Positions 34,700-48,887 of a stretch of 64,000 nt of DNA are shown piece after piece (position 1 is the stretch's first letter; each line of letters opens with the position of its first letter). Made by a program: the position numbers and the translations under genes. A model generated the notes under the pieces. The model was not told the DNA's origin and did no database searches. It was given only the letters and a program-made list of their open reading frames with translations. Source of the DNA: a virus; IMG/VR virus record IMGVR_UViG_3300028559_000015, positions 25,905 to 89,904 of that record. One strand, given 5' to 3'.

Positions 34700-35281
34700 A
34701 TGAGCCTAGTTCCAATCGTACTCGAACAAACTAGCCGCGGTGAACGCAGCTACGACATTTATTCACGCTTGCTTAGAGAGCGTGTCATTTTGCTTGAGGG
34801 CGAAGTGCATGACCAAATGGCTAACTTGATTGTTGCCCAACTTCTTTATCTTGAATCGGAAGATTCAGATAAGGATATTTCTCTCTACATCAACAGCCCT
34901 GGCGGCAGTGTCACTGCTGGTCTAGCGATTCTTGACACCATGGATTTCATTAAATGTGATGTATCTACTATCGCAATTGGAAGCGTTTGCTCTATGGGGT
35001 CTTTGATTGCCAGTTCCGGTGCCAAAGGGAAAAGGTTTATTCTTCCTAGGGCGAGGCACATGGTTCACTCGGTGTCCGGTGGATCCCGCGGTACAGTATG
35101 GGATGCTGAAATCCAAATGGAAGAAATGGTTCGGTTGAATAACCTTCTTACTGAGGTTTATGCTAACAACACCGGTAAAACTATTGAAGAACTTAAAGCT
35201 GCTATGGCTCGCGACAACTATATGGATGCCCATGCATCCGTTGAGTTTGGATTAGCGGATAAGATCCTTACTTCTAGGTAA
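34700..35281 (+). CDS. clpP: ClpP protease subunit
   Basis: [24 protein letters not shown] (Ser), MVHS (His), RDNYM (Asp). Confidence 0.96.
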
Positions 35282-36083
35282 CGGTTCTTCCGGGATAATA
35301 CCCATCTGGACAAGTTTTCGCTCTTACTGATTTGCTACCGTCTGTGTACCAGTGGTAGCCGCTGTAATCTCTGTTCAGATGGGAATTTCCTGATCCGTTC
35401 GAGTGTCCCGATCTATAACCTTCAGGACATTCAAATGCTAACACCGAATTAATTCCGTTAGTGTACCATTTTTTTCCGATACCATGAGCCTTCCCTTTTA
35501 AAGTATCGCTTATTTTTTTATTAGTTTCTGCTGATGCCGGCAGCTTGCCCTTGACAAATCCGACCTCCTGTCCTACATTAGGTGGTAGCATTATTTCTTT
35601 GAAACCATTGTTGTAGCAAACATAGCCTTTTGTGTATCCGGATTGTTTAGGAAATGGATTAACTAATCTACCGGGAATGAACCCTTCGGGACATGAGTGT
35701 TGATGGACCTCCGTAATTCCATTATTATACCATTTCTTGTTCTTATTAGTTTGTCTTAGTTTAGCTACGCCTTCTTCGGTAACTTTGAATCTACGTTTAT
35801 TTCCGGATTGCCAATGTTTATTGAGTAGTAATGGATTGTCCCAATTCTCAATGATCAGCATATTCTCCCGATCATATGCTTCATCCGGATCCGCAGTTTT
35901 AAATATTATATCACTCTCGTATTCACGGAATTCTTCCGAGCCTATGTATTCTGCGGAGGTGAAATATGTTATTCCTAGATCATCTTCCGGGTGAATCTGT
36001 AGTTTGATGTTAGCATATCGGTATCCGATATAAAACTGTTTGGTTACCTTATGAGTAAGGCGATACACGTAAGCTAAATACAT
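35274..36083 (-). mobile_element. GIY-YIG (Seg-like) homing endonuclease with four WxNNG repeats
   Basis: AYVY...FYIGYR...YFTS...LLNK; tail-to-tail overlap with clpP. Confidence 0.8.
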
Positions 36084-36085
36084 TT

Positions 36086-36152
36086 GCTGATACTCCGTTT
36101 CAGTATTAGAGTAGTTGGGAATCTCACCTCCGTGAACTACACTTTTATTTAT
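36086..36152. ncRNA. Conserved two-hairpin element, copy A
   Basis: GCTGATACT-loop-AGTATTAGA-GTAGTT..AACTAC-ACTTTTATTTAT; 4 copies with covariation. Confidence 0.75.
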
Positions 36153-36312
36153 CTTTGCGGTTGCCAATCACCGTTTTGTGCGTTAGCGTATAAATAAGAG
36201 TGAGCGCAATTCACGTTTCGGTGAAAAAAGGTTGACTTCGGGTACGTTCTTTGTTAGAGTGCATCATAAGCTGAAAAACAGAAACACAAAATTCAAGGAC
36301 ATCAGATTTAAA

Positions 36313-36522
36313 ATGCTCTTTCAAAAAGTCTTCGTACTTCGGGTCATCTATAAGAGTGGTTATGCCATTGACTTTGAAGTCACTGAATATGAGATCAGTC
36401 CATCTATTGCCAAGTGGGTTTCTGCCAACGACGAGTTTCGTCCGATCCATCTGAACTACGATGAAGTAGCTTCTGTGTGGAAGGTTGGTCAACGTCTGCG
36501 CCTCAAGTTTTTCAAGAAATAA
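36313..36522 (+). CDS. Hypothetical early protein
   Basis: Downstream of a TTGACTTCGGGTAC promoter variant. Confidence 0.6.
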   Translation: MLFQKVFVLRVIYKSGYAIDFEVTEYEISPSIAKWVSANDEFRPIHLNYDEVASVWKVGQRLRLKFFKK

Positions 36523-36533
36523 GGAAATATAAA

Positions 36534-36749
36534 ATGTCAAAGAAGTATGATGAACGTCACGGAGGTCCGTATGATCGCGGGTCTGCTGATAGCTACTACG
36601 GTCGGGGTTCTAACCCTCACTACTACAAAGGTGGTAGCTATTCCAGCGAAAAGGTTGAACAGAAGCATATGACTCCTGAGGAAATCGAAGCCTATCTTGC
36701 AGGATACGCCGGTAACGAAGCTGAAGGTAATTTTAAGGACTGGGGTTAA
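36534..36749 (+). CDS. Hypothetical protein
   Basis: HGGPYDRGSADSYYGR...YLAGY. Confidence 0.75.
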   Translation: MSKKYDERHGGPYDRGSADSYYGRGSNPHYYKGGSYSSEKVEQKHMTPEEIEAYLAGYAGNEAEGNFKDWG

Positions 36750-36758
36750 GTTGAATTA

Positions 36759-36821
36759 AATCGTACCCGAGGTCACTTTTCGGTTGACTTCGGGTATCCG
36801 TTTTGCTACATTGAATCATAG
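36759..36821 (+). repeat. Hairpin-embedded early promoter, copy 2
   Basis: Near-identical to 23440-23502. Confidence 0.8.
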
Positions 36822-36849
36822 ACAGAAACAAACAAACGGAGACACGAAC

Positions 36850-37125
36850 ATGATCTACACTCTCAAGATTTATCGTTATGATCGTCGCTGCAAGAGCGGT
36901 GAACGCTTCTTTAAGACTTACGAGTATGACCGTAAGGACGATGCTTCGATGGACCGCGAAGTCAATGCTCTCCGCGGCTGTGGCTACTTCGACGACATGT
37001 TCCGCATCGAATACGCCCCCAAGTTCATCACTGTCAAGAACCTGATGAGCGGCAAGGATGTGCAGATTGCTGCCGATACTCCTTGGTCTTGTCGTCCGGA
37101 TTCAGAATCTTATTGGTCGGCTTGA
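36850..37125 (+). CDS. Hypothetical early protein
   Basis: VKNLMSG...DTPWSC.P.SESYWS; GGAG RBS. Confidence 0.75.
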   Translation: MIYTLKIYRYDRRCKSGERFFKTYEYDRKDDASMDREVNALRGCGYFDDMFRIEYAPKFITVKNLMSGKDVQIAADTPWSCRPDSESYWSA

Positions 37126-37721
37126 GGTCTGATCATAACAAAGGAACCATCAGGCAGATAATGTCTTTTGGTTCCTGTTTTTGATTTAGCAAGTTTTGCA
37201 TTTCGTTCTGGTGTGCAAATTTTAGCCTGAACATCTGGTCTTTTTAATGCTGCCGAAATATTAGCTTTTCCAGATTCTGGCATTTTCCACCCTTCTTCTT
37301 TTTTCTTGCGTTCTCTTTGGGCAGCTAATTCTCTAAACTTTTGAATGTTCTCCGGTGATCGTTTGAATCCAGTCAATTTTCTGCTAATGCGGGCCTTCAC
37401 TTCTTCTGTGTGTTGAGCGGGACCACGAAACTTTTTTCCTCCGTTATGTCTATTAATCCAATTATCGCGGGAAGCAGCGTTTAATCTTCGTAACACCTTG
37501 TGTTCCCACAGTATGGCTTCTTGAGATGTAGAGAATATTTTTCGGACCTCAACAGTGAATGAGTCAATGCCGTATTCCGCAATCAACTGCTTGACTATTT
37601 TTGACGATGAAAAATAAGTTTTCCATAGTGTATCTGGGTTCGCAGTTTTACCGTGCCTAATCCCGTAATAATGCTTTTGAGTGGGCTTATGGAATAGATA
37701 GTATGAAAAAGGGGTTGACAT
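37110..37721 (-). mobile_element. GIY-YIG homing endonuclease with NUMOD3-like tail
   Basis: FSYYL...HYYGIR...YFSSS...WEHKVL...WINR; TATAAATA directly upstream; lacks the two-hairpin element. Confidence 0.8.
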
Positions 37722-37782
37722 TGTTTCTTTCCTGTTGTATATTGTATTTATACAAACAAAGATGTTTTTGGAGCATGTAATC

Positions 37783-37959
37783 ATGGATATCGAAAGAGCA
37801 AATCGTATCGTAGGCAAGATGGCTAAGGAGCGGTATCGTTCCAGCGACGAAGTTCTTGCCGAGTTCTTGCGTTATCAGAAAGATGGCGAGTGCCAGCATT
37901 TTTGGCCCGATGAAAACACGGCATGTCTCATGCTGATTAAGCGACGAGCGAGTCAGTAA
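37783..37959 (+). CDS. Hypothetical protein
   Basis: GGAG RBS; TTGACA-N17-TATATT promoter overlapping the endonuclease start. Confidence 0.55.
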   Translation: MDIERANRIVGKMAKERYRSSDEVLAEFLRYQKDGECQHFWPDENTACLMLIKRRASQ

Positions 37960-38006
37960 TGCTGCAATATATCCCTTCAAAAGTCAACATCTATAAGGAA
38001 AATAAA

Positions 38007-38222
38007 ATGGAAACTATCGCTAAGGTTATCGGCCTCGCTGTCGTAGGAATTGTTGCTATCGTTGTTCTCGGGCTTATTCTTAGCCTGCCGGTCATGTGGC
38101 TTTGGAACGCTTGTCTTGTCGCTGCTATTCCTGGCATCAAGGAAATCGGATGGCTCCAGGCTTGGGGTATCTTGATTCTGTGCGGCTTGCTCTTTAAGAA
38201 TGCGTCTTCGTCTTCTGACTAG
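38007..38222 (+). CDS. Membrane protein
   Basis: MWLWN...IGWLQAWG; two TMs. Confidence 0.7.
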   Translation: METIAKVIGLAVVGIVAIVVLGLILSLPVMWLWNACLVAAIPGIKEIGWLQAWGILILCGLLFKNASSSSD

Positions 38223-38311
38223 GAAAACTTAGCACTTTGGATAAACATAGACATACTAAATAACAATTCTAATATTTAAAAACAAACATTGATATCATAG
38301 GAGAAGAACAA

Positions 38312-38533
38312 ATGTTAAAAACTATTACTGCACTACTAGTCGGTACCAGTCTCGTCGCCGGCCAGGCTATTGCACAAAACAGCGCATCGACATCTCGGGT
38401 CGGTGATCGGGTCGGTGCGACAGCCGAAAGGTCAAGTGATGTTGCCGGTGTACCGCTGTCATTGCTGCTAATCGGCTCCATCGTAGCTGTCATTGCTTAC
38501 AAAGCCACAGACGACAACCCTGCAAGTAACTAA
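38312..38533 (+). CDS. Small exported protein with C-terminal TM
   Basis: Signal peptide ending AIA; TM followed by DDNPASN. Confidence 0.7.
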   Translation: MLKTITALLVGTSLVAGQAIAQNSASTSRVGDRVGATAERSSDVAGVPLSLLLIGSIVAVIAYKATDDNPASN

Positions 38534-38610
38534 ATAAACCAAAAATAAAACTTGACAACCGCTTAGGTTGAGCGTATAGTTGATATATAAACTCGATTAT
38601 GGAGTCAGCT

Positions 38611-39006
38611 ATGGATCTGCTTGCTGTCGGACAGACGGTTACTATCAAGGTTGAAAACGTTATGTGGCCTGCTCGGGACCTCCACGCTAATGGTGTTGTT
38701 GGTCCCGAGTTCAATATCTATACCGGCACGATAGTGCGTGAGAAATGGTTTGATGCTGATGAGATCGGCATCACCACCGAAAATCCTAAGTTTCCGTTTC
38801 GTCGCATTCAGCGCCAGAGGATTGTAGCAGTTAACGAGCAGGCTGTCGATTACACTCCGATCAAGTCTGCTCGGGTTGAAATCACTGTGCAAGGTTCTAA
38901 GGGCAACACTTATATTGTCACTAAGGAGAACGGCAAGGCCACTTGTTCGTGTTCTGGTTTCCAGTTTCGCAGGACTTGCAAGCACAGTCAAGCAGTGCTA
39001 GTGTAA
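38611..39006 (+). CDS. SWIM zinc-finger protein
   Basis: GSKGNTY.V...CSCSGFQFRRTCKH; promoter at 38552. Confidence 0.8.
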   Translation: MDLLAVGQTVTIKVENVMWPARDLHANGVVGPEFNIYTGTIVREKWFDADEIGITTENPKFPFRRIQRQRIVAVNEQAVDYTPIKSARVEITVQGSKGNTYIVTKENGKATCSCSGFQFRRTCKHSQAVLV

Positions 39007-39007
39007 G

Positions 39008-39217
39008 ATGAATGCAGCTAAAGAAAACACATTTAGGGCCTTGCGTGATGAGGAGTTGCTTGTGACCAGTTTTTTGTGTAGATTTAATTGGCACACCTGG
39101 ACCAAATATCGTGAACCCGAAATTATTCGTGATAGTACCTTTAAGCCGGTAACTATTCAAGAACGCAGATGTGGGTCTTGCAACCTCTCCAATCGTAAAA
39201 TCTTAAGTAAGGATTAA
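39008..39217 (+). CDS. Small Cys/His protein
   Basis: LCRFNWHTW...QERRCGSC. Confidence 0.65.
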   Translation: MNAAKENTFRALRDEELLVTSFLCRFNWHTWTKYREPEIIRDSTFKPVTIQERRCGSCNLSNRKILSKD

Positions 39218-39220
39218 GCA

Positions 39221-39586
39221 GTGTCAATGCACTTAGCACCTGTGTTCGTGAGTACGATCAATCAGGGTAAGATCAAAAAGAAACTCACTGCACCCCAGCA
39301 ACGAGCATTGGCCGAACACCAGGTCTGGCTACGCAAGCGAGGGCTTCATATCGAGCAAATTAATGCGAGGAAGCCTAAAAAGCGTGTCACAGAAGAAAGC
39401 ACCTTTACCTACGAGTCTCGCTGCGCTGTTCCTACTTCAAACACAGTAGGCAATGGGTTCAAGAAGGAAGAAAACAAGTACACAGGCACCTTGATTAAAG
39501 GAGTGGCCACGATGCACAAGAGCAATTGTGTTCCTGTCATTGACAAAAAACAAATGGAAGAAATCTCTCGGATGCGCCGAGGCTAG
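39221..39586 (+). CDS. Hypothetical protein
   Basis: YTG...MHKSNCVPV...MRR. Confidence 0.75.
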   Translation: MSMHLAPVFVSTINQGKIKKKLTAPQQRALAEHQVWLRKRGLHIEQINARKPKKRVTEESTFTYESRCAVPTSNTVGNGFKKEENKYTGTLIKGVATMHKSNCVPVIDKKQMEEISRMRRG

Positions 39587-39600
39587 ACTAAGAGGTAATT

Positions 39601-40098
39601 ATGCGTAAAGAACTTGATGAATTGCTGTGTGAGAAGTATCCTAAGATTTTCAGGGACCGAAACGCACCCATGAATCAAACCTGCATGTGCTGGGGATTCG
39701 ATTGCGGTGATGGTTGGTTCAACATCATTGATGCTCTGTGTGATAATATCCAAAGCCATATTGACGATATTGAGCGGCGGCGAGTTTCCACTATTAAATG
39801 GAATGAAAACCTGAATGATCCTGATTTTGAGTGGTCGGCGTACTATGCCTCGGAGTTTGTTGAACGAGAAGAACGTCCTGTTCCGGAACTGCTTGATCAG
39901 GTTGTTGCTATCCAGGTAAAAGAAAAGTTTGGTACACTGCGTTTCTACTACAACGGCGGCGACGATTACATCGATGGTCTAGTGAGTATGGCAGAGTCAA
40001 TGTCTGCCGTCACCTGTGAGGTGTGCGGTAATCCGGGTACTAGTACTGACGGCGGTTGGATTCGTACTCTGTGCGAAGAACATAAAAAGGAAGAATAA
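39601..40098 (+). CDS. Hypothetical zinc-finger protein
   Basis: CGDGW, QVKEKFGTLRFY, TCEVCG, TLCEEH. Confidence 0.8.
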   Translation: MRKELDELLCEKYPKIFRDRNAPMNQTCMCWGFDCGDGWFNIIDALCDNIQSHIDDIERRRVSTIKWNENLNDPDFEWSAYYASEFVEREERPVPELLDQVVAIQVKEKFGTLRFYYNGGDDYIDGLVSMAESMSAVTCEVCGNPGTSTDGGWIRTLCEEHKKEE

Positions 40099-40110
40099 TG
40101 AAGGCGAGGA

Positions 40111-40953
40111 TTAATCCACATACCTTGCAGAATAACCGTAGATTTTAGGATGTTCAGAAACCTTTCCGGAACGCAATGCACCATATATTAAGTGGAACGA
40201 TAATTCTAGCTCTTTGCAGGTATCCCTAAGATTTCCATAGCATTCTATTTCATTTCCTAAAGGGTCAACAATTATAATTCTTTTTGCTCTAGGATTGTTT
40301 TTTCCGGAGTGAGCTTTTCCTTTTAGTTGCATAGATCGTTTCTGTTTTAGTTCTGTTGCCTTTTCTATACCGTAAAGCTCATCATATGATTTGCCCTTAA
40401 ACCTAGTAGAAGCAACACTTGCTTGAGTTTCCTTCAATTCATCCGAATGAGTCTTACCGAACATACCGTTTTTGCTTCCTGGATTGGATTTTTTAGGGTT
40501 TGAGCCGCGTAACTTAGCTTTAACTGTTTCGGTCAACGGGCCTCTAACCTTTCCTTTATTGCTGCGGCCGCCCTTCTTGTATATCTCATCAGTGAGCTCC
40601 AATCCTTTATTCCATGCCTGGCCACCGTAACGGACACACGCATACGATCGGTTGATATACAGAGGATTCCTAATCACTTGTAATGTTCGCTGTATACAGT
40701 CCTCTTTGTCATATGCTTCTTGGCGAGTAGAAAAAGATGCTATGATAATACTACTAAACAACTGCGGATTGAGTTTTAGTTCGGATAGCCAAATATTCTT
40801 ATATTCTTTGCTAGTAACTGATCCACGGTAGCCGCGGGCTACTTTGCGGACGCTGCTAGAACCTATGTAGAACGGGGGAAGCTTATTTCCTCGGTATATT
40901 GTTAGGTACACACAATAAAGTGTTCGGTTGGCTTCGGAAGTGTAAATAGTCAT
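40111..40953 (-). mobile_element. GIY-YIG homing endonuclease with NUMOD3 repeats
   Basis: YCVY...FYIGSS...YRGS...YINR; NGMFGKTHSDE. Confidence 0.82.
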
Positions 40954-40954
40954 T

Positions 40955-41022
40955 GCTGATACTCCTTAACAGTGTTAGAGGGGATGGGCATTGCGAGTGC
41001 CGCGATCCTCACTTTTATTTAT
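40955..41022. ncRNA. Conserved two-hairpin element, copy B
   Basis: Second stem changed to GGGGAT/ATCCTC (compensatory). Confidence 0.72.
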
Positions 41023-41103
41023 CTTTTTCCTTGACAATGTTTCTGTTATCGTGTATAAGAAATATACAGTCAAATACTGTATTAAAAGAAGGTATTTCAG
41101 AAC

Positions 41104-41988
41104 ATGCTCCTAGCCCTGGCCAGTGATTTGCACCTCGAATTTTCACCCATCGCCCTTCCTAACACTGAGGGTGCGAAGGTCCTTATTCTGTCCGGTGATA
41201 TCTGTGTTGCCCATTCGCTGCATGATCATCCCATCGACAAGCCTGTGCCTAAAGACGCCATGAAGCCTGGACGTAACCAAAGTGCTGCATATAAGTACCG
41301 TGAGTTCTTCCATCATGTCAATCAAGAATATGATCATGTGGTATACGTCAGCGGCAACCACGAGTTCTACCATGGTCGGTTCCCCGATGCGTATGATTGG
41401 CTGCGTGAGGAAATCAAGAACTATCCTAATATCCACTTCCTTGATAAAGAGCATGTTGAGATTGATGGTGTAACCTTCGTAGGTGGCACCCTCTGGACGG
41501 ATATGAACAAGAATGATCCTACTACTATGCAAGTCGTTAAGGGCATGATGAATGACTTTAGAATCATTCGTAACAGTCAGCGCAACTATGCTAGGTTCAC
41601 TCCACTTGACTCTGTAGTCCATCATAAAGAGACTGTAGAGTACATTAAGAATGTAGTTGACAGTGACCCCGTGAAGAAGTACGTTGTAGTTGGACATCAC
41701 GCTCCTACGTCCTTGAGTATCCATGAAAAGTACAAGAAAGATGTATGGATGAACGGCGGATACTTCAGTGATCTGTCTGAGTTTATCCTAGATCGCCCCC
41801 AGATCGCACTTTGGACTATGGGACACATGCACCACCCGCATAGCTACTATATGGGTGATACATTTGTTGCTTGTAACCCTCGCGGATATGCCGGACACGA
41901 CCCGGACGCTGCTAACTTCAAGTTGCGCTATATTGATTTAGACAACATGCCTGCTAAGTTTGAAGGGGTTAACTGGTCAAGAGATTAA
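41104..41988 (+). CDS. Metallophosphoesterase (intact motifs)
   Basis: SDLH, GDI, GNHE, GHHAP, GHMH, NPRGY. Confidence 0.9.
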   Translation: MLLALASDLHLEFSPIALPNTEGAKVLILSGDICVAHSLHDHPIDKPVPKDAMKPGRNQSAAYKYREFFHHVNQEYDHVVYVSGNHEFYHGRFPDAYDWLREEIKNYPNIHFLDKEHVEIDGVTFVGGTLWTDMNKNDPTTMQVVKGMMNDFRIIRNSQRNYARFTPLDSVVHHKETVEYIKNVVDSDPVKKYVVVGHHAPTSLSIHEKYKKDVWMNGGYFSDLSEFILDRPQIALWTMGHMHHPHSYYMGDTFVACNPRGYAGHDPDAANFKLRYIDLDNMPAKFEGVNWSRD

Positions 41989-42644
41989 AGTCTGCCTCGG
42001 GCCCATTCAGGTCCGGGGCAGTTTCTTGCCATAGTAGATTTGATACCATTGTTCCACCATTTTGTTCCGGAGGTTTGTAAGTTAGGTTTACCTTTCTTAA
42101 CGGAAGGTAGCCTTCCCTTACTGTATCCTTCCGGGACGATGCCGTGTATCATCATTTCGTGAGTATCGTTGTTGACCCAAATCTTTCCTCGCTGTCTATC
42201 GGTGCCGATTCTTGCACCTACATTATTAAATGATAGTCGGCCGGGGATAAAGGCTTCATCAGGAGGTGTCTCTGCAAACACTTGCTTCTCTCCATTATTC
42301 CACCATTTTCGGAGTTTGTTCATTTCAGAAAGGTTAGGCAGCCATTTTAGATAGTTTGCCGTTTTACTCGTATCACCGCCATCACCTGTCTCCGGTCTTA
42401 GATTAGCCCAATCATCACTCTCTACGATGTTCCATAGCTCACTGTAGTATGAACCCCAGTATTCCATTTCTTCTTTAGTTGCACATTCTTTAATGATTTC
42501 CGTATCTAAATCAATTCCGTGTTTTTTGATATGAGGTATCCATCTGTCTCCGGAACCGCAATAGGTATATGGGTCCTTTTCGGTCTTTCCCAGATATTGT
42601 AAGCCGGTTTTCTTATGGGTCTTTTTGTACAAATAAATAGTCAT
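41985..42644 (-). mobile_element. GIY-YIG homing endonuclease with three WxNNG repeats
   Basis: TIYLYKKTH..TGLQYLGKT...YCGSG...WANL; stop overlaps the neighbour's stop (TTAA). Confidence 0.82.
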
Positions 42645-42712
42645 GCTGATTGCTCCTTCTAGCATTAGAGTAGTTGGGATTGTCCAGATCCGCGAACTAC
42701 ACTTTTATTTAT
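42645..42712. ncRNA. Conserved two-hairpin element, copy C
   Basis: GCTGATTGCT..AGCATTAGA-GTAGTT..AACTAC-ACTTTTATTTAT. Confidence 0.75.
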
Positions 42713-42892
42713 GCTATTCTCATTGACATTACACCTATCTTCTCTTATAAAGAACTACGTCAGCTTAAGTTCCTTGACATTTAGTTACCCGTTTTACTTG
42801 TGTAAACCGTTGAATGGTTGTATTATGATAACACGCTGTAATAGAGCCGAAGCCAGCAGTGAGAACTTTTAGAACAAGAAAATAGAACCAAA

Positions 42893-43426
42893 ATGAAGGC
42901 AAGTCTCGGACGCTATCTTCGTACAAAAGAACGGAAGATAGATATTCAAATTGACAAGTTTGATACGTGGTCGCTAGACCACACCTTGGCTTTGATAATT
43001 TTGCCGGCCCTCATTCAACTAAAACAGACTAAGACCGGAACTCCTGGAAGTTTTGTGAATGATAGCGCAGAAGATTATCATGATCAAGCTACATTTGACT
43101 TCATGAAAGAAGATAAGGATGAAGTCTTCCAAAAAGGATGCGATGAATGGGACGACACGCTTGACAAGATGATTTGGGCTTTTCAGCAGATTGCATTGGG
43201 TGACTATGATAGCAAGTATCATCACGGTGAGATAGATATCGCTTGGGAGAAGACAGACAAGCAGTATCCAAATCCTACAACAGGAAAGATGGAAAGCACC
43301 TACCAGATGGTTGACAAAAATCCCGGTGATCATTGGTATGATTCCGTTGGACATCAACTGCATGAGGAACGAATCCAAGAAGGTTTAGAACTGTTCGGCA
43401 AACATTTCCGCTCACTTTGGGATTAG
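42893..43426 (+). CDS. Hypothetical protein
   Basis: DTWSLDHTLA...LDKMIWAF...GLELFGKHFRSLWD. Confidence 0.8.
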   Translation: MKASLGRYLRTKERKIDIQIDKFDTWSLDHTLALIILPALIQLKQTKTGTPGSFVNDSAEDYHDQATFDFMKEDKDEVFQKGCDEWDDTLDKMIWAFQQIALGDYDSKYHHGEIDIAWEKTDKQYPNPTTGKMESTYQMVDKNPGDHWYDSVGHQLHEERIQEGLELFGKHFRSLWD

Positions 43427-43451
43427 GTTATCTTTAACCCCATAAAGCATA

Positions 43452-43976
43452 ATGAAAGATTTAAAAATGAAGCACAAATACATATCCCTTTATATGGATA
43501 TCGCCGAAAGAATAAGCCAAATGTCACACGCCAAACGCCTTCAAGTTGGCAGCGTGATAGTAAAAGAAAACACTATTCTGTCCTATGGTTGGAATGGCAT
43601 GCCTGCGGGATGGCCGAACACATGTGAATACAAGGAATATAAGAAACCGCATTGGATTGGAATTGATCCAATGACGCTCACTCCCTTTGATGAATTATAT
43701 CCGTTAGAAGACGAGGAGGGTAGATATAGATGGGTCACAAAACCCGAAACACTTCACTCCGAAATGAATGCCCTAATGAAAGTGGCGCAATCTACTGAGT
43801 CTTCGTCGGGAGCAACATTGTTTTGCACCCATGCCCCGTGCATCGATTGTGCAAAAGCGATCTTTCAAGCCGGTATCTCTAATCTGTACTACCGAGAAGA
43901 ATACCGCTCAACATCGGGAACACAGTTTTTGAAGATATCGGGAGTAAATGTCCATAGATATTCCGACCTCCCATAA
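43452..43976 (+). CDS. dCMP deaminase
   Basis: QVGSVIV, GWNG, HSEMNAL, PCIDCAK. Confidence 0.9.
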   Translation: MKDLKMKHKYISLYMDIAERISQMSHAKRLQVGSVIVKENTILSYGWNGMPAGWPNTCEYKEYKKPHWIGIDPMTLTPFDELYPLEDEEGRYRWVTKPETLHSEMNALMKVAQSTESSSGATLFCTHAPCIDCAKAIFQAGISNLYYREEYRSTSGTQFLKISGVNVHRYSDLP

Positions 43977-44163
43977 AGCTAACATAACAATAGAGTTTGG
44001 TCAGCTACAAACAATCGTAGACTGGTGTGAACGCAATTGTGTTTCTGAATTTTGGTATTCCGGAGAACACGAACGCTGGGATGGTGATACATTGTATTAT
44101 GGATATGAGTTTTACTTCGTGTCCGAGAAAGACTATTTTGCATTTATGATTTGGAAAACGTAA
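43948..44163 (+). CDS. Hypothetical protein
   Basis: GGGAG RBS; overlapping operon. Confidence 0.65.
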   Translation: MSIDIPTSHKANITIEFGQLQTIVDWCERNCVSEFWYSGEHERWDGDTLYYGYEFYFVSEKDYFAFMIWKT

Positions 44164-44432
44164 TGAAGTTCTATGTGTTCAAGAGAGAATCTAATAAGTT
44201 TGATGATATTCTCAAAGATGTAGCAGTAAAGCCGATTATCAGATACAAGATTAGATACAAGGACCATTTGATACTCGGATTTTCCAATGACGATGAAAAG
44301 ATCATGTCATACATGACTCTCAAGTACGGTGATGACATGATCTCTTTCAATGACATTGCGCCCGATAGAACTCCTATCATGGGCAAAGATTATACACCTG
44401 TTCGCAGAGACAAAAAGGTTGTTAGGTCTTAG
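44163..44432 (+). CDS. Hypothetical protein
   Basis: TAATG coupling. Confidence 0.6.
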   Translation: MKFYVFKRESNKFDDILKDVAVKPIIRYKIRYKDHLILGFSNDDEKIMSYMTLKYGDDMISFNDIAPDRTPIMGKDYTPVRRDKKVVRS

Positions 44433-45048
44433 TAAGACCTAACATTACAGCGTACTTTTTAGTTTTGTCTTTGCGGTCATCAAGTCCGTGAGTACCTCCA
44501 TTGATGCGTTTTGTTAATGCAAGAATAGTAGCATCGTCTACACCTTTGTCGCATATAGCCCATAGCTTGTTTGTTTCAAAGAAGAACATTGCGCTCTCGA
44601 AAGAATACTTGGTTGCGACGATATCAGGATTGGTCATTACCTCTGGATCACCGATGTGCTTTGAGAATGCTAGGTAGTTATCTTTACCAGTCAACTGAAT
44701 AGCTCCGCGACCACGGTATTTCCATCCGTCACCACTCTTTTCGTCACCGTTGCCCATGCGACTTGCATAAACACGATTAGCAATCATTTCTGGTTTGCGT
44801 TCATACTTTGCAGCAGTAGCAGCATCAGGGAAATACTTCTTAAAAGTGCCTTGTAGACCCTTAGCACCATAGTTAAGATTTTCGTTGAATGCTTTGAACT
44901 CACCGCTCTCATGGGCACATTGTGCAAAGAAGTGTGCTGCACGAATCGGCGTCATCTTATAATGAGCTACGGCAGCTTTTAGTGTGCCTGGACCAAATGC
45001 TCCATCAGCGGTAACACCTACTTTTTCTTGAAGATGTATCAAACTCAT
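44422..45048 (-). CDS. GH19 endolysin with peptidoglycan-binding N-terminus
   Basis: ADGAFGPGT, AQCAHES, ENLNY, YRGRGAIQLTG, INGG. Confidence 0.92.
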   Translation of the reverse strand: MSLIHLQEKVGVTADGAFGPGTLKAAVAHYKMTPIRAAHFFAQCAHESGEFKAFNENLNYGAKGLQGTFKKYFPDAATAAKYERKPEMIANRVYASRMGNGDEKSGDGWKYRGRGAIQLTGKDNYLAFSKHIGDPEVMTNPDIVATKYSFESAMFFFETNKLWAICDKGVDDATILALTKRINGGTHGLDDRKDKTKKYAVMLGLTKT

Positions 45049-45058
45049 TTAACTCTCC

Positions 45059-45559
45059 TTAGAATGTTTTCCATTCGTCTTTTGGATCAAAATCATTAGT
45101 TGGCAAGTACTTAGTTGACTTACCGTCTTTCTTTGCGATCAACTTCTGCTTGCGGTTACCGCCTTCTTTCTTGATAGAAGCATGTACCCAACCTGAGTTC
45201 TTGTCACCTTCGACATAGAATTCCAAAATTATTTGGTCAAACTCTAGGTTATCAGCAATCCAGTCTGCTACAATTTTGTTTGAAATACCGTTGATTTCAA
45301 AGTCAATAGCTTGACCATTAACGTGCTGACTGGTCTTTGAGCCGCCTACAGCAGCATTAACCTTCGGTGCACGATATGATGAGTTGATTGTTATCGGCTT
45401 ACCAAAGTGCTTACGTACTGGCTCAAGAATTTTCTCACAGCAATAACGCATGTTTTCAATATGCTCTGGTGTAGGAGTATTTGATAAACCTAAACGTTTA
45501 GCGGTAGGTGATACAATCATTTCTTCTAATGTAAAGTTTTCTGTTAATTTTGTTGGCAT
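45059..45559 (-). CDS. Peptidase M15 endolysin
   Basis: INSSYR, SQHVNGQAID, WVH. Confidence 0.9.
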   Translation of the reverse strand: MPTKLTENFTLEEMIVSPTAKRLGLSNTPTPEHIENMRYCCEKILEPVRKHFGKPITINSSYRAPKVNAAVGGSKTSQHVNGQAIDFEINGISNKIVADWIADNLEFDQIILEFYVEGDKNSGWVHASIKKEGGNRKQKLIAKKDGKSTKYLPTNDFDPKDEWKTF

Positions 45560-45611
45560 TCACTTGCTCTCTCTTCCAGTAAATGTATTTATGCAAAAGG
45601 GCTTGACTTTA

Positions 45612-46175
45612 CTATCTATATGTCTTTGGTAGCATTCCCGAGACCCATTCGTCCCCGATTGGTTTCTCTTTTCGGTTAACTGCAATAGAACCATTATTAT
45701 ACCAACGGTTTCCGGCTGTAGTAGGTTTTTGATTGATTCTTCCAGGCACCCAGCCTGCAGGACACGATGTTAGAAACTTACTAGTGACGCCGTTATGATA
45801 CCATCTTCTTGCGGCATTTGTTTTTGCTCGGCGAAGACTTGAGGCTTTTTTTACTTCATCCGTATGTTTTTTGCCAAACATCGGGTTGTTCTTGCCCACT
45901 CCCCCTCCGGTCCCTTCTTCTTCTCTTAAGTTAGCCCATTCCGGACTGTCAACAATGTCCCACATTCTACTATAATGTAGTCCCCAATATCTGGCTTCTT
46001 CCTTAGTAGAGCATTCTTTTATGATTTCCGTAGTCACATCATATCCATGTTTTTTGATGTGAGGTTTCCATAAGGTTCCTGATCCTTGGTATCTATGCGG
46101 ATTTGTGGATTCGGTTTTTCCGAGGTATTTGAACCCGGTTTTGTTGTGGGTCTTCTTATACAAATAAATAGTCAT
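45612..46175 (-). mobile_element. GIY-YIG homing endonuclease with NUMOD3 and two WxNNG repeats
   Basis: Close paralog of 41985-42644 in the nuclease domain; flanked by an imperfect ~38-bp direct repeat. Confidence 0.85.
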
Positions 46176-46176
46176 A

Positions 46177-46242
46177 GCTGACGGTCTCCAAGGCGTTAGA
46201 GTAGTTGGGGATTCCCGTCCCGCGAACTACACTTTTATTTAT
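46177..46242. ncRNA. Conserved two-hairpin element, copy D
   Basis: GCTGACGGTCT..AGGCGTTAGA-GTAGTT..AACTAC-ACTTTTATTTAT. Confidence 0.75.
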
Positions 46243-46288
46243 GCCATAATGATTGACTTTAACTATCTGTATGTGCTATGTGTAGAAT

Positions 46289-46831
46289 ATGAAAAAAACA
46301 TACCTCTTTAAAAATAATAACTCAAGTAAGCCGATTGTATACGTGGATCTTGACGGCGTATTAGCTGACCTCTATAACCATGCCGCTGAAATTCACAATG
46401 TTGAACATTACAACGAAATGACGAGAGATGAATGGGAGACATTCTTCAAAGATAGCAACGCACATCATCTTTTTCGTGACATTCCCCCTTTCGTTACTGC
46501 AAATCAACTGCTCAATCTTGCAAAGAAGTATGCCGGCGGATATCGTATTCTTAGCAGCCCATTGAACTTTGACCGCGAAGGTAGCATCAAGGGCAAGCGT
46601 GAATGGCTTGCAAAACATATCAATGTTCCTGCTGATGAGATTATCTTTGAACATGAAAAATACAAGTACGCTGTGCAGCCCGACGGTACTCCTAACGTAT
46701 TGATTGATGATTATGGCGTGAACACTCGTGCATGGGATAACGCAGGAGGCATCGCTTGCAAATATCAGGCTGACGAGAATGACCTTAGTGTGGTAGAGGA
46801 TGTTCTAAAAGAAACATTCGGGGATAAATAG
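46289..46831 (+). CDS. HAD 5'(3')-deoxyribonucleotidase
   Basis: YVDLDGVLAD, ILSSP, GKREWL, LIDD. Confidence 0.88.
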   Translation: MKKTYLFKNNNSSKPIVYVDLDGVLADLYNHAAEIHNVEHYNEMTRDEWETFFKDSNAHHLFRDIPPFVTANQLLNLAKKYAGGYRILSSPLNFDREGSIKGKREWLAKHINVPADEIIFEHEKYKYAVQPDGTPNVLIDDYGVNTRAWDNAGGIACKYQADENDLSVVEDVLKETFGDK

Positions 46832-46850
46832 TATTATACATTCGGAGAGC

Positions 46851-48887
46851 ATGATGAGCGATACTAGAGACCTTTACAAGCTATTCAGAGAGCTTGAGAA
46901 CCAGCACCAAGAAAATGACACTGTGCGTTTGCATGACAGTTTTGATTTGGAACTTAACGAACACTTCGTCATTGAAAGCGGCGTGGTTGGTCTAACAGAA
47001 GACGGCGTTATCATCCAGCTTGACGAAGCAGCACTAGAGTTTCTAGACTTTAATGGTATGCTCACAGAATCTTTGCAAGAAGTTGGTCTTAAAGATCATG
47101 AGCCAAGAAAAGTAGAAGGTGTGTACGGTCCGAAGTCGAAGCCTTTTACTAAGAAGTTCAATAATCTAAAAGCGATGAATAAATTTTTCGACCACCCTGA
47201 TAATGAGGGAAACTATGAAATAGAACGTATTTCAAAGGTCACCGAATCAGTTGAGCTTAACGAGATATCTGACAAAGTGCTGACCAGTTACTTGACTAAG
47301 GCCTGGCCCAAGAGAGGTGAGACTGTCCCCGATAAAAGACTGCCCTTTATGCAAAAGGCCAGGGACGCTGCTGATAGATATTGGGACAAGCAGGGAAAGG
47401 AAAATGACGCTGCTGATGTACAAAAAGTGTTGGCTAGAACCCCCAAAGTTCATGACCTAAGACATATGAGTCATGGGGAAGTCTATGATATCACGCAAAC
47501 TTCCGATGAAATTCGTGACGGCGATGTTCTTCATGTAAAGGGCGGCTCTGCCATCATGTTTAAGGCTTGGCCTACAATGGTAAAAGGCGATAGCAACTCT
47601 CTACACACCTGGGACACAGATGCAGGAAACTCATGGGACGACGAGGAAGTAAGCCACTATAAACGCGCAGTTGATATCGCTAGGTCTTTGCCAATCAATT
47701 CGGCCTCAAGCCGAAGCGGCCGCGACGTAGACGAATCAGCAATAGCAGAAGGTTCTAGTCGAGGAGTTGCAGACGCAATTCGTCATAGAATCCTACACAG
47801 TCACAAAGATGTTGTCGCTAAGTACGGTCCTGTCAGAATCATGGCAGCGATTAGAGATAGAGCAGATAACCTAAATGACTTAGAAGAAATCGGTTCAAGC
47901 GACATCAGCATTTGGACTCGTCAAGTTATCGACGATCTAGAAAAGGGTTATTATGATGACGAAGATACAGTTTCGGTCAAGCGAGATGTATCCGAATCAG
48001 CAGAAGATTCTGACATTTTTGCGAAGATTGTAAAGAGCGATGACCCCTTCCAAGTAATTTACGATGGTATCTCGGGTCACTTCGGTGAAGTGGCACGTAT
48101 CAAACTGCAAGACATCTATGATGATGTCGCTCTTGACCACGGAGATCATCCAGACGATGACTTTGAGGAGATCATTGATCGTATGATTCCTCGCATTCAT
48201 GAACTACATGACATTGGGCTTGATTACTCAGCTTCAAAAAAAGACGAGCTAGATGAAATCAAGAAACTTGCATTTGGACGAGACGCTTTAGAAGAAAATC
48301 CTATGTTGATGGCTTTGGGCAGGTCGGCGGCAGTTGGTGCCGCCCGCGAGCTTGCGGGCAATGTCGATGAAGGATGGGGTAAGAACCTTTTAGGGGCTGG
48401 TGCTGTGGTTGGTGCGCTTGCTGCTATTGCCGGTATCGATAAGATGGAAGCAGATCGGCTAATGAAGACTGAACCACAGCTAGTCACATTGACTCAGATG
48501 CGTCAAGAAGCAGAGCGAGAGGGCGACGATAGTGCTGTCGATGCGCTCGATAACCGAATCAGAGTGACACTCAATTCTATCCGTAATACGGGTCGACCTG
48601 TAATGGGTCCAGACGGTGAGCCAGTTGATCCTAGAAAATCATTGGGTGAAGCAGAATATCAAGGACGAAAGGTTACCCTCAATAAGCCGATGCAGGGCGA
48701 TGTTGCAAAGAGCAAAGTCTATGTCAAGAAGCCTGACGGTAAGGTCGTGAAAGTAAACTTCGGCGACAAGAACATGACTATCAAGAAGTCTAACCCGGCG
48801 CGCCGCAAATCATTCCGTGCAAGACACAACTGTGAAAATCCGGGACCAAAATGGAAAGCAAGGTATTGGTCATGCCGAGCCTGGTAA
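46851..48887 (+). CDS. Acidic multi-segment late protein (probable internal head polyprotein)
   Basis: GATAAATA at 46823; segments separated by LTE/LQE/LNE/IAE/LDE/LEE/VDE/LGE; basic C-terminal domain ending SFRARHNC...ARYWSC. Confidence 0.65.
   Translation: MMSDTRDLYKLFRELENQHQENDTVRLHDSFDLELNEHFVIESGVVGLTEDGVIIQLDEAALEFLDFNGMLTESLQEVGLKDHEPRKVEGVYGPKSKPFTKKFNNLKAMNKFFDHPDNEGNYEIERISKVTESVELNEISDKVLTSYLTKAWPKRGETVPDKRLPFMQKARDAADRYWDKQGKENDAADVQKVLARTPKVHDLRHMSHGEVYDITQTSDEIRDGDVLHVKGGSAIMFKAWPTMVKGDSNSLHTWDTDAGNSWDDEEVSHYKRAVDIARSLPINSASSRSGRDVDESAIAEGSSRGVADAIRHRILHSHKDVVAKYGPVRIMAAIRDRADNLNDLEEIGSSDISIWTRQVIDDLEKGYYDDEDTVSVKRDVSESAEDSDIFAKIVKSDDPFQVIYDGISGHFGEVARIKLQDIYDDVALDHGDHPDDDFEEIIDRMIPRIHELHDIGLDYSASKKDELDEIKKLAFGRDALEENPMLMALGRSAAVGAARELAGNVDEGWGKNLLGAGAVVGALAAIAGIDKMEADRLMKTEPQLVTLTQMRQEAEREGDDSAVDALDNRIRVTLNSIRNTGRPVMGPDGEPVDPRKSLGEAEYQGRKVTLNKPMQGDVAKSKVYVKKPDGKVVKVNFGDKNMTIKKSNPARRKSFRARHNCENPGPKWKARYWSCRAW

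Follow-up and report, generated by a model that had tools for sequence, protein, structure and literature searches.

A widespread two-hairpin cassette at the head of phage homing endonuclease genes, with the layout of a possible antisense RNA control element

A 64,000-nt stretch of DNA from an uncultured lake phage, hereafter the window, carries the same two-hairpin element four times, each time in front of a gene for a putative homing endonuclease. The window is part of an 89.9-kb IMG/VR record (IMGVR_UViG_3300028559_000015; G000), judged 26% complete. The locus raises two questions, namely on which strand the element is active and what it does for the homing endonuclease gene (HEG) behind it. 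Our analyses resolve the first of these, and they show that the element is a widespread control cassette of HEGs. As to the second, we favor on balance, going by the sequence, a ~65-nt cis-antisense RNA that would have its own late promoter, would use hairpin 2 and a U-tract as its terminator, and would cover the leader, the Shine-Dalgarno (SD) sequence and the AUG of the nuclease mRNA.

All four copies were found as described in the original prediction, at 36086-36152 (copy A), 40955-41022 (B), 42645-42712 (C) and 46177-46242 (D) of the plus strand. Directly behind each lies a minus-strand gene for a Seg-like nuclease, with open reading frames (ORFs) of 187-280 aa. Read on the plus strand, every copy consists of GCTGA, hairpin 1, TTAGA, hairpin 2 and ACTTTTATTTAT. 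Read on the minus strand, the order in all four is ATAAATA-AAAGT, hairpin 2, CTCTAA, hairpin 1 (which contains GGAG), TCAGC, 0-2 nt and ATG. The 12-mer ATAAATAAAAGT, with at most one mismatch, is present six times in the window against 0.65 expected, a count reached in none of 100 shuffles. A covariance model of the element, R1, found the four sites at E 3e-17 to 2e-16 and its next best match at E 2.7; the four copies are among the 102 rows on which R1 was trained, so these matches arise partly by construction.

Searches of IMG/VR indicated that the element is common. An exact pattern of its invariant parts (pattern 1) is present in at least 114 stretches and yielded, among the matches listed, 118 matches with 102 unique sequences. 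A second pattern, whose sole anchor is the commonest form of hairpin 2, is present in at least 119 stretches and added 94 new loci. This new-locus set is without the pattern-1 matches and is thus biased against the consensus; the flank figures quoted below for the hairpin-2-anchored set come from its 94 loci. Loci L139-L232 were parsed by regular expression only. In the loci scanned, R1 gave 150 matches (130 unique), and five large cassette-bearing records (G001-G005; 158-525 kb, two of them rated complete) held 15 matches, with one to four copies each. Among the 185,579 species genomes of GTDB there were four exact-pattern matches (L233-L236), all on contigs of metagenome-assembled genomes. 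These genomes are labeled Flavobacteriales, Mucispirillum, Erysipelotrichaceae and Alphaproteobacteria, and the contigs are probably phage contigs binned into them. R1 found nothing at E<=1 in five cultured phages (C48C1, HTVC008M, Melnitz, S-PM2 and T4), and INPHARED phage records gave no match to copy C by blastn or to 35000-47000 by megablast. The original prediction took the element to be absent from Rfam, and this was borne out: Rfam 15 gave no match at gathering score across the window, and at E<=5 over 35900-46400 it gave a single chance match to a small nucleolar RNA, outside the elements. The element is widespread in viral contigs and nearly absent outside them.

The strand was analyzed with RNAalifold on 102 unique sequences, read in the orientation of the window's plus strand, which is antisense to the nuclease genes. 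Two hairpins with 19 pairs were recovered, and 13 of the 19 pairs show compensatory changes. On this strand 96.8% of cells hold standard pairs, compared to 78.1% in shuffles; the observed pairing or covariation score was reached by none of 500 shuffles, and slid registers paired at 33-50%. This establishes that the module is real and covarying, as had been proposed. On the gene strand the same 19 pairs are standard in 86.2% of cells. The difference is largest in hairpin 1 (95.1% antisense versus 76.4% gene strand), while hairpin 2 keeps 93% standard pairs on the sense strand. The antisense strand has 222 G.U wobbles and the gene strand 16, or 120 versus 16 when an invariant wobble is left out. 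In the lower stem of hairpin 2, the gene strand has 41 A.C mismatches and one G.U among 612 cells, and sense hairpin 1 has one invariant A.C and a second A.C in 54 of the 102 sequences. The earlier remark that several positions are G-U on the plus strand and A-C on the minus strand thus turns out to be systematic, and it decides the strand question. Because a double-stranded palindrome would give no strand bias in wobbles, the selected fold is that of a single strand, antisense to the nuclease gene.

Folding energies point the same way. Of 125 sequences, 116 have the more stable core on the antisense strand (means -16.8 versus -11.7 kcal/mol, with an average gap of 5.0), and a base composition control explains 2.2 of these 5.0 kcal/mol. 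When the four window copies were folded singly, the plus strand was weakly better than shuffles (z -1.1 to -1.9) and the sense strand was no better than shuffles (z -1.19 to +0.18). The case for structure rests on covariation, not on energy. GCTGA and TTAGA had been viewed as invariant junctions; they instead pair together as the base of hairpin 1 (GCUGA with UUAGAG) and covary in the wider family. Among 88 parsed sequences of the hairpin-2-anchored set, the base is CUGA/UUAG in 56, CUGU/AUAG in 10, UUGA/UUAA in 9, CUGG/UUAG in 9 and CUGG/CUAG in 3, and its third pair is always G.U. The bulged Gs are also invariant, appearing as C.C on the sense side in 102 of 102 sequences.

What the element precedes was clear from the ORFs behind it. 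A complete ORF follows 117 of the 130 unique R1 matches (102 of at least 150 aa and 15 shorter), and in the remaining 13 the ORF runs off the locus. The 15 short ORFs are probably decayed. In five decayed cassettes (L064:1137-1216, L128, L131, L134 and L084:207-288), hairpin 2 is kept and hairpin 1 or the ORF has been lost or cut to 1-40 codons. Alignments and scans took 101 of the 102 longer ORFs; that of L030, which has Ns in its element, was left out. Pfam matches among the 101 were NUMOD3 (31), HNH_3 (12), HNH (8), SegE_GIY-YIG (7), HNH_5 (6), GIY-YIG (4) and DUF559 (1), and PHROGs assigned 60 to family 314, 30 to family 655 and others to several HNH families. Crude motif classing, the counts of which are approximate, gave ~74 GIY-YIG-like, 24 HNH-like and three unclassed ORFs. 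Since HNH and GIY-YIG ORFs are both found behind cassettes, the cassette belongs to HEGs generally. The association with nuclease genes therefore holds across IMG/VR loci, while the restriction to GIY-YIG genes implied by the original prediction must be dropped, with roughly a quarter of the downstream genes being HNH.

Gene and cassette also share their comings and goings. The window sequence is present in contigs of 20 lake, freshwater or groundwater metagenome runs, and it was compared with DNA contigs of related phages from other metagenomes (X17 and X20). In X20, a contig joins across 45610-46384, which holds HEG D and its cassette, with 133 nt in their place (flank 255 nt). Contigs of both relatives join across 41817-42759, which holds HEG C and its cassette (flanks of 255 nt in X20 and 30 nt in X17). 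Because these contigs join across gene and cassette together, the two move as one. These relatives do carry copy B. X17 leaves 35000-35833 uncovered, and the match to pieces of X17 and X20 (records 17 and 24) breaks off at 36168, 16 nt past cassette A, where they continue with unlike sequence. This part is joined across by no contig and was not used as evidence for absence of HEG A.

The module is bounded by two copies of one motif, running from the sense ATAAATA to an inverted TATTTA(T) within codons 2-4 of the nuclease gene. On the gene strand, ATAAATA at -12 to -6 is conserved at 73-96%, and nothing is conserved further upstream (hairpin-2-anchored set). It ends 5 nt before hairpin 2 in the four copies and in the wider family, and so the late promoter does lie upstream of the whole structure, unlike in the I-TevI type, as had been noted. 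At the other end, the pattern-1 set has TATTTA at 4-6 nt past TCAGC in 97 of 104 unique sequences, and the hairpin-2-anchored set has it at 4-8 nt past the close of hairpin 1 in 84 of the 88 that were parsed. Relative to the start codon, all three frames are used in the latter set (60, 13 and 10 sequences), giving N-termini of the forms M-x-I-Y, M-Y-L and M-I-F-I. The commonest N-termini are MTIY (39), MNIY (15) and MSIY (9); MIFI (5), MYLx and others are also present, and MTIY begins both SegE-like and HNH proteins. As it is found in all three frames, the TATTTA hexamer is conserved as DNA and not as protein.

Seen from the antisense strand, the inner motif reads (A)TAAATA and is separated by 5 nt, sometimes by 4 or 6, from the G of GCUGA that follows it. 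The gene strand mirrors this arrangement, with ATAAATA, 5 nt and then G. The spacing of both motifs to the G of the conserved RNA would place them in T4 late-promoter geometry. Passages of PMC1524935 give the T4 late promoter as TATAAATA at -13 to -6, describe the T at -13 as poorly conserved in other T4-like phages, and report a late-type promoter CTAAATA in Aeh1. The window contains 24 copies of ATAAATA, compared to 12.3 +/- 3.3 expected, and of the 18 that are not part of a cassette, 10 are followed after 19-39 nt by an SD sequence plus start codon. From this placement, ATAAATA appears to behave as a promoter in this phage. Homologs of T4 gp55 (30-36% identity, E 8e-8 to 4e-5) were detected in three of five cassette-bearing records (G001, G002 and G004), both complete ones included. 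The matching ORFs (L136-L138, from G004, G002 and G001) are 304-310 aa long, compared to 185 aa for T4 gp55, and align only to gp55 residues 30-116.

Taken together, these features suggest a portable control cassette of ~80 bp that would travel with its HEG and contain two convergent T4-type late promoters ~75 bp apart. The outer promoter (ATAAATA, 5 nt, G) would produce the nuclease mRNA, whose 5' end would coincide with that of hairpin 2. The inner promoter, inverted within codons 2-4, would fire backwards and start at the G of GCUGA. Its predicted product is a small RNA of ~65 nt composed of hairpin 1, hairpin 2 and ACUUUUAUUUAU, in which hairpin 2 and the U-run may form an intrinsic terminator. 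The tail ACUUUUAUUUAU directly follows the stem of hairpin 2, which is bulged and A/U-rich in its lower part. The predicted RNA takes in the SD sequence, GGAG within hairpin 1, and reaches to 0-2 nt from the ATG. It would be fully complementary to the mRNA's leader, SD sequence and start codon, and it would display an anti-SD CUCC in the loop of hairpin 1. Pairing between the two could block translation or trigger decay, so that the nuclease would be kept low. We infer, then, that the antisense RNA is produced, ended at hairpin 2 and repressive.

Several observations weigh against this antisense RNA. No gp55 homolog was detected in G000, the 26% complete record containing the window, or in G003. 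Only 74 of 97 sequences have the inner motif's first A, and seven of 104 sequences lack TATTTA at offsets 4-6 after TCAGC; six of these have none in the 40 nt examined and one has it at +9. Both promoters are of late type, which provides no evident timing logic. In part, the U-run merely reflects the sense promoter, and positions -5 to -2 (AAAG) are themselves 62-64% conserved in the hairpin-2-anchored set. A simple terminator scan did not flag hairpin 2, because bulges interrupt its stem. The sense strand still pairs at 86%, which leaves room for a role as a sense leader. Finally, the bulged Gs, the invariant G.U and the high conservation exceed what a purely cis-acting antisense RNA would need.

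These points bear on other explanations to different degrees. The antisense fold could be a terminator or insulator only, which would end and stabilize neighbor transcripts reading through the inserted nuclease gene, with an outward promoter to restart transcription and no regulatory RNA. Hairpin 2 followed by a U-rich tail is compatible with this, as is the arrangement of neighbors: among 77 loci, both neighbors are on the opposite strand in 44, including all four window copies, both are co-oriented in 16, and 17 are mixed. It also draws support from an outward TTGAC on the antisense strand: 32 of 128 loci have one no more than 25 nt past the tail, in 25 cases at a distance of 7-11 nt, versus three in control windows. 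A -10-like hexamer accompanies 29 of these 32, and a further 22 loci have an outward TAAATA. We nevertheless consider this explanation unlikely. The fold is kept in the 16 fully co-oriented loci, and since the cassette is kept in every neighbor orientation, read-through cannot be the only source of the folded strand. Neither the maintenance of hairpin 1 on the antisense strand (95% versus 76%) nor a TATTTA that occurs in three frames at a fixed distance from GCUGA is explained, and the terminator scan's failure to flag the hairpin counts here as well. If the hairpins instead acted within the nuclease mRNA, on its translation or its stability, they would be a variant of the T4 hairpins masking the ribosome binding site (RBS). 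Such a leader structure would make sense of the 86% standard pairs of the sense strand (93% in hairpin 2) and of an SD sequence within hairpin 1. HEG-leader hairpins accompanied by TATAAATA are indeed read in this manner in passages of PMC2677866 and PMC2988022. The wobble bias, the A.C mismatches of sense hairpin 1 and the poor sense folds of the four copies all favor the other strand, however, and a promoter upstream of both hairpins would provide no early/late switch. This makes a sense leader improbable.

The antisense RNA might also be made and have its main role bound to a protein or in trans, for instance in silencing look-alike leaders of co-infecting phages. Its invariant bulged Gs and wobble would fit such a role, as would the very high identity of the element among phages with nucleases that are just 10-50% identical. 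Neither a partner protein nor a target in trans was identified, though, and the two promoters, the SD sequence and frequent recombination between copies could also explain the conservation; we regard this role, too, as improbable. A bolder version treats the RNA as a shared trans-acting brake that would silence every cassette-headed nuclease in the cell, those of co-infecting rivals included, with the invariant bulged Gs and G.U marking a site for a protein or for the nucleation of pairing. Doubtful as it is, such silencing is conceivable because the RNA sequence hardly varies between unrelated nuclease genes, across many phages; if true, copy-number control would double as a weapon or truce between competing phages. 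A single-stranded DNA structure, serving as a recombination, replication or mobility signal in homing, could produce the same strand bias, as DNA hairpins tolerate G.T too and the bias alone fits either RNA or single-stranded DNA. The promoter-like and terminator-like features lie exactly at the two ends of the fold, however, and the element occurs once per gene with no partner on the 3' side, which makes a DNA signal highly improbable. The last of these facts also argues against the mobility end that was among the options first offered. A double-stranded operator for the cognate nuclease was rejected on the strength of the strand bias in wobbles, which a palindrome would lack, and of the sharing of one element among unrelated nuclease families. 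Nothing was found in favor of an RNA cofactor, and the nucleases carry DNA-binding modules of their own (NUMOD3 in 31 of 101). From that list of options, an RNA and a terminator of an antisense transcript came closest to the cis-antisense RNA that we favor.

A similar solution is known from insertion sequences. In IS10/Tn10, an outward promoter inside the 5' end of the transposase gene faces the gene's own promoter and produces RNA-OUT, a structured antisense RNA of ~70 nt that covers the RBS and start codon of the transposase gene and restrains transposase. Like the RNA-OUT/RNA-IN pair, the cassette has an outward promoter motif inside the 5' end of the gene for a mobile element's enzyme, and by its geometry the predicted structured antisense RNA overlaps RBS and start codon. 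It differs from IS10 in that the gene is a homing endonuclease gene, the promoters are of phage late type and the predicted RNA has two hairpins. Moreover, many phages have the cassette in almost unchanged form, on nuclease genes of unrelated families.

The controls of HEGs described for T4 and its relatives are akin in aim. According to passages of PMC2988022, a late promoter lies inside a sense hairpin that masks the RBS of I-TevI, I-TevII, I-TevIII, segB and Aeh1 mobE, and late transcripts lose the masking arm. The cassette resembles this family, as far as these passages describe it, in having a late promoter and RNA structure before both GIY-YIG and HNH genes, with low nuclease as the shared aim. 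In contrast to the T4 scheme set out there, its promoter precedes both hairpins and its fold is selected on the antisense strand. An internal late promoter of the T4 type was not found, with ATAAATA ending before hairpin 2, and sense hairpin 1, only 76.4% paired, does not qualify as an SD-sequestering hairpin. The closest published likeness, compared by description only, is that of Dassa et al. 2009 (PMC2677866). According to passages of that paper, hairpins occur in the HEG leaders of GOS 'fractured genes', in 15 of 16 cases, and TATAAATA accompanies 10 of them. The leaders belong to GIY-YIG and Vsr-like HEGs, two conserved motifs pair, the structure is read as a sense translational hairpin, and at one locus the hairpin was retained after HEG loss. 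Both descriptions concern environmental phage-like loci and HEG-leader hairpins with TATAAATA, and the two may be the same element; neither a small RNA nor an antisense promoter or a strand bias is mentioned in the passages of PMC2677866. Fremin et al. 2023 (PMC10690425) mined the same database, IMG/VR, for a catalog that, in the passages concerned, has 8495 candidate structured RNAs with a median length of 65 nt and comes without functional study. It includes 879 candidates within 25 bp upstream of genes, 1241 terminator-like ones and 598 opposing-strand pairs, and it may list this element. Full-text literature searches, which did not extend to the supplements of PMC10690425 and PMC2677866, revealed no description of an antisense RNA for HEG cassettes.

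If true, antisense RNA would be a third, undescribed mode of HEG control, in principle as in insertion sequences. To our knowledge, the controls described for HEGs are the T4 promoter-in-hairpin and autorepression by I-TevI. Homing endonucleases are the main selfish genes of large phages. Here control would be packaged in a portable 80-bp cassette that reaches into the first four codons and is swapped between GIY-YIG and HNH genes, illustrating how a selfish gene could enter a host genome equipped with a promoter, a brake and a terminator of its own. The predicted RNA is a testable small RNA candidate with more than 130 natural sequence variants, and the cassette is useful as a marker for HEG annotation in uncultured jumbo phages.

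Within the window, the predicted antisense RNA of copy A (36086-36152, plus strand; 82.6 bits with R1) begins with G and CUGA and is made up of hairpin 1 (36087-36109), hairpin 2 (36111-36140) and the tail ACUUUUAUUUAU (36141-36152). Its candidate antisense late-type promoter, CTAAATA at 36074-36080 (plus strand), stands 5 nt before G36086 and occupies codons 2-3 in the M-Y-L frame. The sense late-type promoter ATAAATA (36146-36152, minus strand) has its predicted +1 at 36140, and HEG A (35274-36083, minus strand; 269 aa, P0001) matches PHROG 314 at E 5e-10. The sequence ATAAATAAGAGTG at 36190-36202 (plus strand), 38 nt to the right of cassette A and facing the opposite way, resembles the first 13 bases of the cassette; no R1 match follows it. 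Copy B's predicted RNA (40955-41022, plus strand; 84.6 bits) has its hairpin 2 at 40980-41010, with GGGGAU/AUCCUC as the stem, and its tail at 41011-41022. The candidate antisense promoter is GTAAATA (40942-40948, plus strand), 6 nt before G40955, and the sense promoter ATAAATA (41016-41022, minus strand) has its predicted +1 at 41010. HEG B (40111-40953, minus strand; 280 aa, P0002) matches PHROG 10820 at 7e-28 and PHROG 314 at 8e-17.

For copy C, the predicted RNA (42645-42712, plus strand; 84.7 bits) has hairpin 2 at 42670-42700 and the tail at 42701-42712. A candidate antisense promoter ATAAATA (42633-42639, plus strand) lies 5 nt before G42645, in codons 2-4 (M-T-I-Y), and the sense ATAAATA (42706-42712, minus strand) would start transcripts at 42700. 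HEG C (41985-42644, minus strand; 219 aa, P0003) is SegE-like, with ~30% identity to T4 SegE over 80% of its length (E 5e-6 to 2e-5). Copy D's predicted RNA (46177-46242, plus strand; 81.4 bits) contains hairpin 2 at 46201-46230 and the tail at 46231-46242. Its candidate antisense promoter ATAAATA (46164-46170, plus strand) is 6 nt before G46177, and the sense ATAAATA (46236-46242, minus strand) has a predicted +1 at 46230. HEG D (45612-46175, minus strand; 187 aa, P0004) is SegE-like with a NUMOD3 match (2e-5). Directly after cassettes B and C, at 41029-41060 and 42724-42755 (plus strand), TTGACA is followed after ~17 nt by TATAAG or TATAAA, facing outward.

All four window ORFs match PHROG 314, 'homing endonuclease', in profile searches. 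Protein C is 15% identical to B, 17% to A and 51% to D; three of the nucleases had been called only distantly related, which holds for A and B relative to the C/D pair. Protein B also matches TIGR01453 of NCBIfam at 4e-5, below the family cut-off. None of the four reaches E<=0.01 with Pfam GIY-YIG, protein A is without any Pfam match at this threshold, and a PDB sequence search with P0001 and P0002 gave no match at E<=1. The GIY/YIG-like motifs of the window nucleases were read by eye.

A fifth Seg-like gene is found at 37110-37751 (minus strand; Pfam SegE_GIY-YIG, 3.7e-7). Its match starts from profile position 47, and it may be without its N-terminus. It has a plain ATAAATA 23 nt before the ATG, without the two-hairpin cassette, and in X20 the region 37083-37887 is replaced by 182 nt. 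Further insertion and deletion differences lie close to the cassettes. In contigs of related phages, 38-39 letters replace 38589-38996, a region whose ORF has a SWIM zinc finger, and 680 extra letters are found between 38227 and 38269. Directly downstream of HEG D are genes for a peptidase M15 (45059-45559, minus strand) and a glycoside hydrolase 19 (44422-45048, minus strand), which are probably a late lysis pair. The pair is on the strand of HEG D and has an ATAAATA of its own at 45592, so that the whole stretch covers 44422-45592.

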